From an uncultured Bacilli bacterium (GTDB lineage: Bacteria > Bacillota_I > Bacilli_A > RF39 > UBA660), in the NCBI GenBank assembly GCA_944350445.1, contig CALVOW010000003.1:13199-77198 (forward strand): DNA of 64,000 nucleotides, given 5' to 3'. Both the position numbers and the translations under genes were made by a program. A model generated the notes under the pieces. The model was given only the letters and a program-made list of their open reading frames with translations. It was not told where the DNA came from and did not search any database. This document shows positions 40,789 to 51,813 of the stretch, piece after piece. Position 1 is the stretch's first letter, and each line of letters starts with the position of its first letter.

Positions 40789-41043
40789 TTAAATAAGAAT
40801 TAACTTTGTTCCATTTAAGATACCAGCATCTTTTAAATTTAAATTTATATCATAGATTTGACAAGTATCACTATTCATTAAAGCATGATTGTACTCTCTT
40901 GGATAAGCTCCTTGCGTTAATTCCGAAATTGCTTTAACTAAATTCAAAATCACATTGCCAATTTTTTTACTAGATGGAATAAATAAATTATATTTTATAT
41001 CAAGTTCTGGTACATAAACTTCAACTAACACTTTAAAGTTCAT
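40789..41043 (-). CDS. esaB: YukD/EsaB-like ubiquitin-fold T7SS protein
   Basis: 84 aa. Starts 1 nt after the essC stop. Pattern YNLFIPSSKKIGNVILNLV ... AGILNGTKLILI resembles EsaB/YukD (beta-grasp ending in G-D/T-x-L-x-L). Confidence 0.65.
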   Translation of the reverse strand: MNFKVLVEVYVPELDIKYNLFIPSSKKIGNVILNLVKAISELTQGAYPREYNHALMNSDTCQIYDINLNLKDAGILNGTKLILI

Positions 41044-41044
41044 A

Positions 41045-44000
41045 TTATAACTCCTCTATATCATTATTAACTGGTTTCAATTCTTTATAAGCTTTAATAT
41101 CAAAAGATAAAACTTTAATTAAAGCATGCTTACCATTGACAACAGCATATCCAAAATCATTAGTTAAAGGCGTTTGTAGGGCTCTATCACTACTTCTTAC
41201 GAGTTTAATTGTATATTGATTACTAATTCCTTCACCTATCCAAATAGCTTGATCAGGATTTCCCATTAATTTAAACCAAGTTTCAAATTCAACTTTTTTG
41301 AATTCATCAACACCATCAACCACAATGAAATTTATAATTGGTAATTTTAAAGATTTATTATACAAATTTGTAAGAATATCTCCTAAATTACTTGTAAGCT
41401 TGGTTTTAAAATTACTAAAATTGTAAATAACGAAAAGCATTGGTTGATATTTGGAAATTATCGAAGTCGCCATACCATTTTCTTCAAACTCTTGATAAAT
41501 TTTATCAATATTATCATTAACATTCTTTAAAACTTCATCAAAATTGGTTTGATATTTGACTATATTTGGAAAATTTTCAGAAACAGCATTACTTGAATCA
41601 ATTAGATAAGTTTTAAACTTGGTAATTTGATTTAATCCCATTAGTAATTCTTTTGTAAAAGATAAAGTATTTTCAAGTTCACTAGCTGTTATTTTATTAA
41701 AGAAGTTTTTCTTAAAATCAAATAAACAAACATCTAAATTATCTTTATAAATTCCAATTGGAAAATTATTTAAATTATCTAATTTATCATTTAAAATACT
41801 CATATTAACCGTATCTGGTAAAACCGGAATTTTTACGGCTTTCTTTGGATAAATTTTATTTAAATTTTCAACTAACTTCTTAAAGAAAGTGCTACTTTCT
41901 TCTTTTTTAGAAGGATGAGCAGTTTGGAATTCATAAATACCATCCCCTACTTTAACAAGACCACGACCAACAGCTTTTGAAGGAGTAATATTTACTCTTC
42001 CTAAAATTGAATAATAATCACTCTTATCATTTAATTCAAGAGCTAAGACTAATTTAAAGTTTTGACTTAATTTATAACGAATCGAATTAGTACCACTAGC
42101 AGTTATCATAAAATAAATTCCAAAACGAGGACATTCTCTTGTATAACGTGTTAACAGTTCAACATAATCTGGATACATTTCACTAAAGGAATCAAAACCA
42201 TTAATCATAATAATAATTGAGGGAACTTTTTTACCAGTTGCTTTTTTATATTCATTAATACTACCAGCATAATTAACAAAAGTTTTTCTTCTCTCTTCCA
42301 AATAAGTATTAATAATTTTAAATAAGTTTTCTAATTTATCTTTATCTTGGGCTAAAACAACATCACCTACATGTGGTAAATTTCGTAAATTTAACATTGT
42401 TTCTGATGAGAAATCTAAAATATAAAAGTTTACATCTTCAGGTGTATATGTAACTGCACAGGAATAAACTACTGTCGTTAAAACTAATTCTTTTCCACTT
42501 CCTGGGGTTCCATAAACAAGTGTATTTCCAAGTTCACTTATTGGTAATGTTAATAGATATTGACTTTGATTAACTGGATCATCATATTCACCAATAACGG
42601 GATTTATATAAATATCTTTTTTATAACTATATTTTTTAATTAAAGCATCAACTTTAATAAAGTTTGGAATTCGATTTAACCAAAGTTGTTTAACCATAAT
42701 ATTTTCTTTATAGGCAATATCATTTAAATAACGAATAATATTTGTTACTTCCTCGCCTTGTGGTTTTAAAATATTTTTCTTAACATTATCAACTGTTTTA
42801 TAAATAGCACCATAATTATTAATAAAATCAATAGCTGTATCAACTTTTTTTATACGAAAATCACTTGGATAATAAGGAGCTCCACTCCAAGCACTTTGTC
42901 CATAGTAAAAATATTCATTAAAGCCAACTTGTAAATAAAAAGCACCAATATTTGTGATACTCGCCGCATCATCTCTTTTTAACATATCCATTGAGTCACT
43001 TCGATCTTGTACCTTTAAGCAAACTTTAAATCTTGAATTTGACCATATTTGATCATTAACAATTCCACTAGGTTTTTGCGTTGCCAAGATTAAATGCACT
43101 CCTAGACTACGACCAATTCTAGCAATTGACATTAATTCATCCATAAATTCTGGTTGTTGCATTTTAAGTTCCGCAAATTCATCACTGATAATAATTAAAT
43201 GACTCATAGGCTCATCTACTTGCCCATTACGATATAACTTTTGATATTTATAAATATCAATGGTACTTTCATTTAATTTATCACGTGCTTCATTAAAAAC
43301 TTTTTGACGACGACGAAGTTCCGAATTTAAACTAGAAAGAGCTCTAGTAATTTCCGTTCGATCAAGATTAGTAATAATCCCGGCAATATGTGGAAGTTTT
43401 ACGCCAGTATCTTTATTTTCAAAAGCACCGGCTAAACCTCCACCTTTATAATCAATTAATACAAAATTAACTTCATCAGGATTATAATTAATAGCCATTG
43501 ATAATATATAAGTAATAATAAATTCACTTTTGCCAGATCCTGTCATACCAGCAATTAAACCATGAGGACCATGAACTTTTTCATGCACATCAAGACCTAA
43601 AATTTCTCCTGTTTCACCAATTCCAACCGGAGCATTTAAACTCATAATGGGATTAGAATCACGCCAACGATTTAAAACATTTAATTGTTCAACTCGTCCA
43701 ACATTATACATTTCTAAGAAAGTATAAGTTTGGGGTAATTTAAAATTACCTTTTTGAAATTCAATTGGCACATTAGCTACTTTACTAGTCAAAAGTTTCA
43801 TATTTAAAGTATTAAAATCAGCTTTAAATTCTTGTTTTAAACCACTAGTTAAGTCTGGTTCTAACATCAAACTAGTATCACCTTGAATATTAATGAATAC
43901 TTTCGCTTCATCTGGCAATCTTCTTAAACTACGATCAATTGTAATAACCGAAAAACCAAAATTTGTTTCTTCATTTAATACTTTATCTAAAATTTCTAAA

Positions 44001-50421: not shown

Positions 50422-51553
50422 GTACATCACCACTCGTTCTTGTAATAATTGTAAATGTATTATCAGCTCTTAAATAAGTTTCAAATTCATCTAAAGGTAC
50501 CCAACCAAGCCGATTAGTATCCGTTCCATTTATATATTCGGTTGTTCTTTCCGGAATAGGAATAGCTGAATCTGCAACAAAAACCATTTCCTTGCCATTT
50601 TCTACTTTATAATCAAGAACTGCCACATAATGCCCCGAATCAGTTTGATAACGACCACTATCATTTCTTTCTAATCTAACAACCATAGTCATCTTTTCTT
50701 CACTTATATTATTATATAAATCTTCTTTATTAAGAACTGTATCACCTACTTTAATCTTATCGTTTAAATAATCATTTTGATCGACAACATCAGACGTTAA
50801 AACATCAGAAAAATATTCATCAACTATTTCCTTAGTTACTAAATAACGATTAGTAGTTAACTCTGTTTTATTAAAATCGCCATTTTTTAATAATTCGTTA
50901 ATTCCTAGTAAAATTCCCGCATTTAAAGAATTAATACTAATTGCATTATTAGCTAAATTAGAATCACTCGCTAATACTTCGGAAACTTCTGCCGGTGTTA
51001 AAAGATTAAAAATAGCATTAAAGGAAGCACAAGCACTACATGATGATCTAGCAATATCCCAATTATCTGAACTAAAAGCATAGGGATTGTCAAGATTAAA
51101 TAAAATTCCGCCATCTCTTAGATTCATTCTTTCAGTATCAGACATATTTTCATAATCATCATAAGTAGTATAAGCATATTGAGCTAATATAAAATATACT
51201 TTGCCATCCGTTTGTATTAAAACATCACTTACTTGACTATTAATTAATTCCATGGCATTAACAATATTTTTAAACTTAGCTATTTCTGTTTCTATAAATG
51301 GTAATAAATTATTATCAATATTTGGTAAATAATCGCCTTTTAAATCATCTTCAGAAATTTTACAATTTTCTCTAGTTTCCATACTAATTGAGTCTAAATA
51401 AAGATTAATAAAGTTACTAGTATCAACATTAGCTATTTCTTCCTTCATTTCCTCAAGTTTTTTTAATAAATTCAAAGCATCATCTGAATCATATGCTCTT
51501 TGTAATTTTGTATCATTTACTTGTGGATATAAATTACCAATTTCTTTCACCAT
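50414..51553 (-). CDS. Signal-less protein with a helical N-terminal region and a C-terminal papain-fold Cys-His-Asp domain (candidate T7SS effector or cell-wall hydrolase)
   Basis: 379 aa. Candidate triad: Cys in SSCSACASFNAIF, His in DSGHYVAVLDY, Asp in VFVADSA, in the order and spacing typical of C39-like/transglutaminase-like folds. No signal peptide. SD AGAGGTG. Confidence 0.55.
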   Translation of the reverse strand: MVKEIGNLYPQVNDTKLQRAYDSDDALNLLKKLEEMKEEIANVDTSNFINLYLDSISMETRENCKISEDDLKGDYLPNIDNNLLPFIETEIAKFKNIVNAMELINSQVSDVLIQTDGKVYFILAQYAYTTYDDYENMSDTERMNLRDGGILFNLDNPYAFSSDNWDIARSSCSACASFNAIFNLLTPAEVSEVLASDSNLANNAISINSLNAGILLGINELLKNGDFNKTELTTNRYLVTKEIVDEYFSDVLTSDVVDQNDYLNDKIKVGDTVLNKEDLYNNISEEKMTMVVRLERNDSGRYQTDSGHYVAVLDYKVENGKEMVFVADSAIPIPERTTEYINGTDTNRLGWVPLDEFETYLRADNTFTIITRTSGDVHE

Positions 51554-51588
51554 TTTACACCTCTTTTATTTTTATAGTTAAAATAATT

Positions 51589-51813
51589 TTATTTATTAGT
51601 TTTAAAATAATAATTATATTCACTTAGTTTAATTAATAACTCTTCTAAATCCGAATCAGTATAATTATTATTTAATATATCTTCAATTGAAAATAATAAT
51701 TCCTGCATATTTGAATAACTATTATAATCAATTTCATATTTTTCTAAAATTTTCATATCAGCATCTGATAAATAAATATCTTCTTTTCGAGCTTTTACAA
51801 AATTATTTTCCAT
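51589..51813 (-). CDS. Small acidic hypothetical protein
   Basis: 74 aa with strong SD AGGAGA. Its start overlaps the upstream membrane-protein gene by 11 nt, and it lies 36 nt upstream of the 379-aa gene. Confidence 0.5.
   Translation of the reverse strand: MENNFVKARKEDIYLSDADMKILEKYEIDYNSYSNMQELLFSIEDILNNNYTDSDLEELLIKLSEYNYYFKTNK

Follow-up and report, generated by a model that had tools for sequence, protein, structure and literature searches.

Can a secretion system of type VII (T7SS) operate when its EssC ATPase is encoded with none of the membrane proteins EssA, EssB/YukC and EsaA/YueB at its side and, if so, what are the other genes at such a locus for? The question is raised by a 64-kb stretch of DNA from an uncultured Bacilli bacterium (the window: 64,000 nucleotides of contig CALVOW010000003.1), which at positions 40,789 to 51,813 carries essC, a yukD/esaB-like gene and two WXG100-type genes together with six further open reading frames (ORFs). 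The locus has what defines a T7SS in the broad sense, namely a membrane FtsK/SpoIIIE-type ATPase and WXG100 proteins encoded with the ATPase. We propose, with moderate confidence, that it specifies a functional reduced T7SS of previously undescribed arrangement, belonging to a clade of uncultured walled gut Bacilli, and that its other conserved genes encode cargo and a partner of that cargo.

The ten ORFs all lie on the minus strand, in a window without frameshifts. Intergenic gaps are 125 nucleotides (nt) or less. The end of p421 runs 4 nt into p207, and that of p379 runs 20 nt into p189. Scanning of a genome collection for EssC yielded 32 loci; these essC-bearing contigs, and the reference loci that were fetched, are labelled L0xx in what follows. 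About 20 of them, with EssC 69-81% identical to that of the window, come from species-level metagenome-assembled genomes (MAGs) designated 'uncultured Bacilli', from rabbit, ruminant and human guts. A six-gene module, wxgA-wxgB-p421-p207-essC-yukD, is found by ORF calling and clustering in ~15 species-level genomes and in more than one chromosomal context.

EssC (41045..45682, minus strand; 1545 residues) is an EssC/TsxC-type T7SS ATPase. Residues 223-1524 match the NCBIfam model TIGR03928 ('T7_EssCb_Firm') with 1004 bits against a cut-off of 778, Pfam assigns FtsK_SpoIIIE (PF01580; E 1.9e-48) and FHA (23.7 bits, cut-off 20.7), and hydropathy marks two hydrophobic segments at residues ~254-313 as two transmembrane (TM) helices, so that the FHA-like N-terminus and two TM segments originally ascribed to this protein are confirmed. 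Walker A motifs are found at residues 712 (D1, GMTGSGKS) and 1058 (D2, GTPGSGKE), and that of D1 is invariant in the alignment of 30 EssC relatives. The protein is full length and its frame intact; conservation over the ~20 MAGs indicates that it is constrained. Its N-terminal FHA region is degenerate at the phosphothreonine-binding residues. The corresponding motif (G-R, S-x-x-H, S-x-N-G) is intact in aligned EssC sequences of L029-L031 and L033; the sister clade retains some of it, and only in the window clade has it been replaced. Loss of the motif goes together with gene content: the window clade has no kinase or phosphatase gene, and the relatives that have such genes keep the motif intact. 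The FHA region of the window EssC is therefore best read, from its residues, as phospho-independent. A separate observation concerns the part of essC that encodes the C-terminal ATPase domain (window 41401-42000), where nucleotide identity between otherwise identical strains falls to 91-95%; this dip recalls S. aureus and Listeria, where variants of the EssC C-terminus go with particular sets of cargo.

The 84-residue YukD/EsaB-like protein (TsxB, predicted to have a ubiquitin fold; 40789..41043, minus strand) is encoded by a gene that starts 1 nt 3' of essC and stands directly downstream of essC, without exception, in 30 loci. Taken alone it scores 16 bits against PF08817, below the cut-off of 27. 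PF08817 is the sole family matched by any of 25 orthologues, eight of which match it (best E 1.3e-7), and the family aligns with EsaB references by hhalign at E 4e-4, so that the identification first made for the single gene stands at the level of the family. Identity among relatives is 67-86%.

Much the same can be said of the two 90-residue WXG100-type proteins. Individually wxgA (48040..48312, minus strand) and wxgB (47759..48031, minus strand) give sub-threshold matches, the former to Pfam WXG100 (E 0.006) and the latter to TIGR03930 (E 0.008); their family profiles, compared with canonical EsxA by hhalign, reach 85% probability (E 6e-6) and 89.5% probability (E 2e-6), respectively, which upholds their initial classification. 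In the alignments wxgA has a conserved W-S-G hairpin motif and wxgB has no WXG motif. This distribution suggests an A1/A2-type pair, in which wxgB (A2) would be the probable heterodimer partner of wxgA (A1).

The absence of the three membrane proteins was examined at several levels. No locus ORF matches an EssA, EssB/YukC or EsaA model of Pfam or NCBIfam at E<=1. Hidden Markov models (HMMs) for EssA, EssB and EsaA were made from three canonical T7SSb loci (of Listeria, B. mycoides and L. fermentum) and run on the window and on 34 related loci, translated in all six frames: those for EssB (best E 0.19) and EssA (best E 1.1) find nothing, and what the EsaA model scores best (E 0.014) is a WXG coiled coil. 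Around the essC genes of more distant relatives, Pfam scans of neighbouring genes detect no EssA, EssB or EsaA, and the three genes are absent within 10 kb of essC in all 32 related genomes. (In the canonical loci that were fetched, L035, L036 and L038, the genes esxA-esaA-essA-esaB-essB-essC are contiguous.) By hydropathy no locus protein besides EssC has a TM-like segment; two hydrophobic stretches are flagged in p472, including its N-terminal FAD-binding motif, and the module holds no polytopic protein. The gaps between genes hide no small TM ORF. What the initial annotation had said on these points is thus accurate: no EssA, EssB/YukC or EsaA/YueB is recognisable at the locus, and this is true of every related locus examined as well; the other ORFs look soluble; and the gaps are too short for another gene. 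Polytopic proteins of 777-885 residues in sister loci were considered as EsaA candidates and set aside as likely transporters, on their TM pattern, the ABC-type (ATP-binding cassette) genes adjacent to them and the silence of the EsaA model.

Of the remaining conserved genes, p421 (46428..47693, minus strand) is the more informative. It lies upstream of essC in ~15 species. Its product runs from a disordered N-terminus through a helical hairpin (residues ~68-154) and an acidic/Ser-rich linker to a beta domain (~215-370) and a Ser/Thr-rich tail; in 33 close relatives the C-terminal 150 residues are nearly invariant and the N-terminal part varies. AlphaFold2 (AF2) models the hairpin (68-154) and two beta units (221-349) at an overall pLDDT (predicted local distance difference test) of 44, and a Foldseek search of the PDB with this low-confidence model returns SH3b repeats of staphylococcal AtlE at the top (E 1.8e-3) and the InlB GW domain behind (5e-2). 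The conserved C-domain itself has no Pfam match; the model is suggestive of an SH3b/GW-like tandem. A profile of the domain retrieves 62 representatives among 1.84 billion proteins, and in these it is always C-terminal. Canonical SH3_3 domains occur in four of 51 p421 relatives (the three copies that were located are in the variable part), and a phage-tail lysozyme domain in one of the 51; in L016 the slot 5' of essC is held by proteins with a canonical C-terminal SH3_3. None of 15 locus-derived and 54 representative members of the family has a signal-peptide-like N-terminus. With wall-type domains, no Sec signal and a gene beside essC, p421 is probably T7 cargo. LXG (PF04740) is not matched by p421 or p379 at E<=1, nor in the 51 relatives of p421. 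The turn of the hairpin (residues ~103-110) bears a nearly invariant N-x-K-T-x-x-K-L, with T106 in at least 90% of the 51 relatives, and may be a counterpart of the WXG/LXG turn motif. A candidate TM helix, 'VVGTLTFxxIVPLYExxG' (Kyte-Doolittle hydropathy up to 1.9 in one homologue), was rejected: it is charged or absent in other members, and AF2 builds the segment as beta strands.

The adjoining p207 (45808..46431, minus strand) is a soluble, all-helical protein, modelled by AF2 with a pLDDT of 85.6 as an elongated bundle of four helices. It belongs to a family found in ~15 species, is mosaic, and has eight relatives among 5.8 billion proteins. PDB profile and Foldseek searches, which might have disclosed a likeness to EssB or another known fold, return generic long helical bundles (I-BAR, alpha-pore-forming toxins), none at E<0.01; as modelled, p207 is neither a pseudokinase nor a membrane protein. 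Its C-terminal half aligns with a WXG-like family by hhalign at 50% probability (E 1.6e-4). (An iterated HMM seeded with p207 swept in all of the WXG-like families, possibly by coiled-coil drift, and the non-iterated results and hhalign were used instead.)

A comparison of the window with a contig of the same species, L041, connects these proteins. The two are 99-100% identical in nucleotide sequence over the rest of the locus, save for three separate blocks: wxgA (48001-48300, ~80% identical), the head and hairpin of p421 (47101-47700, 43-69%) and p207 (45751-46350, 50-77%). Between the variable blocks the p421 C-domain is 95-100% and wxgB 90-94% identical. Joint replacement of blocks that are not contiguous suggests that the products of wxgA, the p421 hairpin and p207 interact, and we infer that a helical assembly of the three may be the secretion-competent form. 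p207 would then probably be a co-secretion or targeting partner of p421. In this respect the locus is somewhat comparable with LXG toxins and their Lap partners, and with the reverse-arrangement substrates (PMC11217815), in which small helical proteins are encoded next to a large cargo that has a helical targeting region; by analogy a multi-helix pre-secretion complex is likely. The differences are that no LXG or Lap family is matched, that the partner in the window is ~200 residues long and encoded downstream, and that the p421 hairpin sits in the middle of the protein, with a variable head before it and a conserved SH3b-like tail after it.

Might p421 and p207 be structural parts of the machine and not its clients? 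They could be stand-ins for the missing components, p421 as a wall-anchored counterpart of EsaA, for example, and p207 as an FHA-bound adaptor in the manner of EssB. Their place directly 5' of essC in ~15 species would fit, as would the near-invariance of a p421 C-domain that looks wall-binding, and the FHA region of EssC needs some partner. On the other hand, neither protein has a TM segment, p207 is helical and no pseudokinase, and both are hypervariable and mosaic between strains, which is the behaviour of cargo. Moreover, they are not beside essC in L014, L016 and L021 and are separated from it by other genes in L015 and L017, and a paralogous pair, p379 and p189, exists as an accessory insertion. 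We regard the stand-in explanation as unlikely. The suggestion that ORFs of the locus replace the absent membrane parts fares no better when taken gene by gene (p207 and p189 are soluble and helical, p421 is soluble with a hairpin and an SH3b-like domain, p379 is a lineage accessory and p472 an oxidoreductase); the structure searches then envisaged return generic helical bundles for p207 and, with a low-confidence model, a marginal SH3b-like match for p421, and an EssB- or EsaA-type component in neither case.

The pair just mentioned is encoded at the 5' side of the locus. A p207-family HMM made from 12 proteins matches p189 (49864..50433, minus strand) over its full length at E 1e-16, which identifies p189 as a p207 paralogue; at the level of BLAST the two are not significantly similar and the family HMM alone links them. 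The larger p379 (50414..51553, minus strand) is helical at its N-terminus and ends in a globular domain, and has no match to Pfam, NCBIfam or PDB sequence profiles. Conserved among its five homologues are a Cys (SSCSAC), a His (GHYVAV) and an Asp (FVADSA) that, by eye, we guess to be a papain-like triad. Kinship with the C39-like peptidase of L025 was considered and dropped (BLAST and hhalign are unsupportive and the PDB profile search is empty), as was paralogy of p379 and p421, which are not significantly similar by BLAST and have unrelated C-terminal domains. p379 and p189 are present only in strains of the window species and therefore accessory; p379 is a candidate effector and p189, by its kinship with p207, probably its partner.

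Two such pairs invite another explanation, in which the large proteins, p421 and p379, would be polymorphic toxins, each with its small neighbour, p207 or p189, as cognate immunity protein. In each pair a small gene follows and overlaps a large one and both members vary between strains, p379 has its conserved Cys, His and Asp, and one p421 relative contains a lysozyme domain. Yet p207 is a homologue of p189, and p421 and p379 have C-terminal domains with no relationship to each other, a combination that favours a partner role over immunity. Variation in p421 also affects the hairpin and head and spares the C-domain, the reverse of what polymorphic toxins do, and a cytoplasmic helical protein is an improbable immunity factor against an activity directed at the wall. 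We therefore think toxin-immunity pairing quite unlikely.

To what system is the locus related? EssC identity falls to 43-45% in a sister group of Bacilli MAGs, to 36-39% in loci of Lachnospiraceae, Eubacteriales and Paenibacillus, and to 26-28% against the T7SSb EssCs of Listeria, B. mycoides and L. fermentum. A neighbour-joining tree (of small sampling, lacking bootstrap values and T7SSc-j reference sequences) places the window EssC and the relatives from the scan apart from these three. Within the wider clade that includes the window, L031 has a Ser/Thr kinase (Pkinase), a PP2C phosphatase and a LytTR regulator near essC, and L030 a DUF6382-FHA protein at the essC locus. Low identity and a separate clade argue that this is not a T7SSb shorn of parts; by its sequence the locus is placed as a reduced relative of other FHA-bearing, non-b T7SS. 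Comparison of essC neighbourhoods thus sustains the absence recorded in the initial annotation, which is shared across related loci, and does away with its 'T7SSb-like' label, since the clade is not that of T7SSb.

The same evidence bears on the simplest account of the absence, that this is an ordinary T7SSb with essA, essB and esaA merely elsewhere in the genome. EssC does score above the TIGR03928 cut-off, and T7SSb EssC proteins likewise have phospho-independent FHA domains (PMC11217815). T7 genes can also be unlinked in sister genomes. In L014 (2770-6671) essC-yukD is preceded by GlmS and ProRS, in L021 (7715-9859) by a U32 peptidase, and neither contig has a WXG, p421 or p207 gene; these genomes have scattered their T7 genes or lost some of them, and WXG genes unlinked from essC make unlinked T7 components plausible. 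Against this stand the 26-28% identity and the different clade, the 0 of 32 related genomes with any of the three genes within 10 kb of essC when canonical loci have them contiguous, and nearest annotated relatives that carry the kinase, PP2C and DUF6382-FHA proteins of non-b systems. Dispersal of an ordinary T7SSb is, on balance, very unlikely. The notion that the locus is the decaying, non-functional remnant of a fuller T7SS has in its favour that the kinase, phosphatase and intact FHA phosphothreonine site of related loci are missing, and is hardly credible for genes in conserved order and without frameshifts in the window, whose EssC is full length, 69-81% identical over many species and invariant in its D1 Walker A, and whose YukD is 67-86% identical. 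Nor is loss of the wall an explanation of the reduction: the window and its flanks encode a class A penicillin-binding protein, glutamate racemase, an MBOAT protein and Amidase_3, and a host with the first two and an amidase is walled.

Relatives of the window locus show further variety. L033 (Paenibacillus tyrfis NZ_BSDJ01000010.1, 10001-18225) comprises essC, whose FHA motif is intact, as well as yukD, two short ORFs, a 260-residue single-TM protein and an Mbeg1-like/lipase_3 protein, between unrelated flanks; EssB, EsaA, kinase and phosphatase were not found at this locus of a cultured Paenibacillus, which by gene content adds one more T7 locus of very small size, and belongs to an isolate open to study. 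In L025, a locus of the sister clade, the genes directly 5' of essC (8165-9810) encode a 372-residue protein that ends in a Peptidase_C39_2 domain and, after it, one of 176 residues; another protein, which combines C39_2 with NlpC/P60, is encoded near essC (3068-4381); from their domains the L025 C39_2 proteins look like wall-hydrolase-type cargo of a related T7SS. On the Agathobacter rectalis plasmid NZ_CP143948.1 (L037, 7426-11854) the annotated order is yukD, 'FHA domain-containing protein', essC, and the N-terminus of essC appears to have been split off into an ORF of its own; the PLSDB annotation, which is incomplete, lists neither essB nor esaA nor essA near essC there. Just 3' of yukD in L021 (14995-15756) is a gene for a 253-residue protein with hydrophobic segments and a weak, maybe spurious, BLAST match (34%) to EssC.

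How much of this is new? Eight T7SS subtypes without EssA, EssB and EsaA (T7SSc-T7SSj) have been described, very simple ones among them (Garrett, Higginson and Palmer 2024, PMC11217815), and the novelty first claimed for the window, which lay in the absence of those proteins, was to that extent overstated. With T7SSb (S. aureus Ess, B. subtilis Yuk, Listeria) the locus shares an EssC with a degenerate-site FHA domain, two TM segments and FtsK-like ATPase domains, as well as a separate YukD/EsaB, WXG100 proteins, adjacent helical cargo and strain-variable cargo modules. Apart from the missing EssB/YukC, EsaA/YueB and EssA and an EssC that lies outside the clade, it differs in having two distinct WXG100 genes in place of one, no detected LXG domain, and yukD after essC instead of before essB.

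Affinity to T7SSe, T7SSf and T7SSj is suggested by L029-L031, which are assigned to these subtypes here by gene content only; they are the nearest annotated EssC relatives within the sample, at 37-39% identity, on the same side of the tree. An FHA-bearing EssC, the order essC then yukD and WXG-like genes nearby are common to these subtypes and the window, and T7SSe also has two WXG100 proteins. In contrast, Pfam and NCBIfam find at the window locus no kinase TsxD, PP2C TsxF, DUF6382-FHA TsxJ, large TsxI with immunoglobulin-like domains or small TM proteins TsxH/K, and whereas the phosphothreonine motif is conserved in the ATPase FHA domains of T7SSe/f/j (in T7SSf just partially; PMC11217815), its residues are lost in the window. 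T7SSg (Acetivibrio, Paenibacillus), which has only A1, A2, B and C and one extra protein (PMC11217815), is similar in its tiny predicted core, made up of an ATPase, a YukD-like protein and two WXG100 proteins that differ from each other. Its TsgC, unlike the window EssC, has no FHA domain; the DUF5050 beta-propeller TsgL has no Pfam or NCBIfam match at the locus, and the Tad pilus genes adjacent to T7SSg are not among the Pfam-annotated flanks of the window.

Judged by gene content, the arrangement fits none of the eight published subtypes and is set apart from them, and literature searches found no description of a subtype beyond T7SSc-j. What appears to be new is the combination of an FHA-bearing ATPase with a dead phosphothreonine site and no kinase, phosphatase, TsxJ, TsxI or TsgL, and a putative cargo with a conserved SH3b-like domain that, with its ~200-residue helical partner, is encoded beside essC. 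The published survey of subtypes was built on RefSeq isolates (PMC11217815); host lineages represented by MAGs only would have escaped it.

The reduced T7SS that we propose can be pictured as follows. Its recognisable machine would consist of EssC, YukD and the heterodimer-type WXG100 pair. The helical hairpin of p421 would serve as the T7 targeting element, pairing with p207 and probably with wxgA too, and its SH3b-like tandem domain would bind the cell wall after export; p379 and p189 would form another such pair of cargo and partner, designed alike but accessory. WXG dimers and the helical bundles of cargo and partner would dock on the ATPase domains of EssC. An EssC oligomer, stabilised by YukD, would form the membrane channel, matching the roles that cryo-electron microscopy assigns in B. 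subtilis to YukB (EssC), the central channel component, and YukD, its assembly factor (PMC12637312). The exported proteins would stay on, or act on, peptidoglycan, p379 as an accessory enzyme effector.

Several points weigh against this proposal. The relationship of p207 to WXG proteins is weak, at 50% probability; the p421 model is poor (pLDDT 44) and its SH3b match marginal (E 1.8e-3); and the triad of p379 is a guess without profile support. The FHA region of EssC has been retained in what looks like a phospho-independent form, which suggests a further protein partner. Just three sequences went into each of the HMMs for EssA, EssB and EsaA, the absence that they report covers the window and related loci, and secretion is predicted from gene content. 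Finally, the essC-yukD contigs L014 and L021, which have no WXG gene, show that T7 genes can be dispersed in this clade.

A bolder form of the proposal may be put forward tentatively, as a possibility well short of an even chance. EssC and YukD would be the complete membrane machine of a minimal T7SS in a walled monoderm; its main conserved cargo, the p421 family, would be a new class of Sec-independent surface proteins, held at the wall by an uncatalogued SH3-like tandem; and strains would exchange wxgA, p207 and the head and hairpin of p421 jointly, in combinations that fit one another.

The other genes of the locus probably have no part in secretion. p472 (48393..49811, minus strand) is an oxidoreductase dependent on flavin adenine dinucleotide (FAD), with a C-terminal Rieske domain (Pfam DAO 5e-25, Rieske 3.5e-10). 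It is adjacent to the locus in eight close loci and one distant one and is 99-100% conserved between strains. The FAD-oxidoreductase/Rieske gene stands immediately 5' of the WXG genes in the window and in L004, L008-L010, L018 and L022, and a 40%-identical copy of p472 (L028:6215-7597) is found near the essC of a 43%-identity sister locus; this neighbourhood could be plain synteny or a functional link. From its domains p472 is judged a housekeeping passenger and not a T7SS part. The small, acidic, helical p74 (51589..51813, minus strand) has no family match in Pfam, NCBIfam or by hhalign. The gene for the PF06541 membrane protein overlaps the start of p74 with the last 11 nt of its 3' end; p74 occurs together with p294 in all seven loci where it is seen, and it travels with the PF06541 gene and rluB; this neighbourhood probably puts it outside the T7SS. 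A terminator-like hairpin between wxgB and p421 (47729..47748, minus strand), picked up by a consensus scan only, is a possible attenuator that would keep WXG transcripts above those downstream.

The flanks are housekeeping genes on both sides, as originally described: hrcA-grpE-dnaK on one, rluB and the polytopic PF06541 protein on the other. Upstream of hrcA is a perfect sigma-70 consensus promoter, TTGACA-17-TATAAT (window 40681-40723), overlapped by the inverted repeat TTAGCACT-N12-AGTGCTAA. The repeat resembles the CIRCE operator, the target of HrcA, and suggests classic HrcA autoregulation of hrcA-grpE-dnaK.

If EssC and YukD do suffice, the locus would offer a natural minimal system for asking which parts of a T7SS form the channel, and what T7SSa and T7SSb gain from their accessory membrane proteins. 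The proposed system would extend the catalogue of T7SS subtypes, compiled from RefSeq isolates, into uncultured gut Bacilli, and it points to a family of wall-directed proteins without signal peptides as T7 cargo. Matched replacement of wxgA, the p421 hairpin and p207 between strains amounts to a testable prediction of which proteins bind one another.

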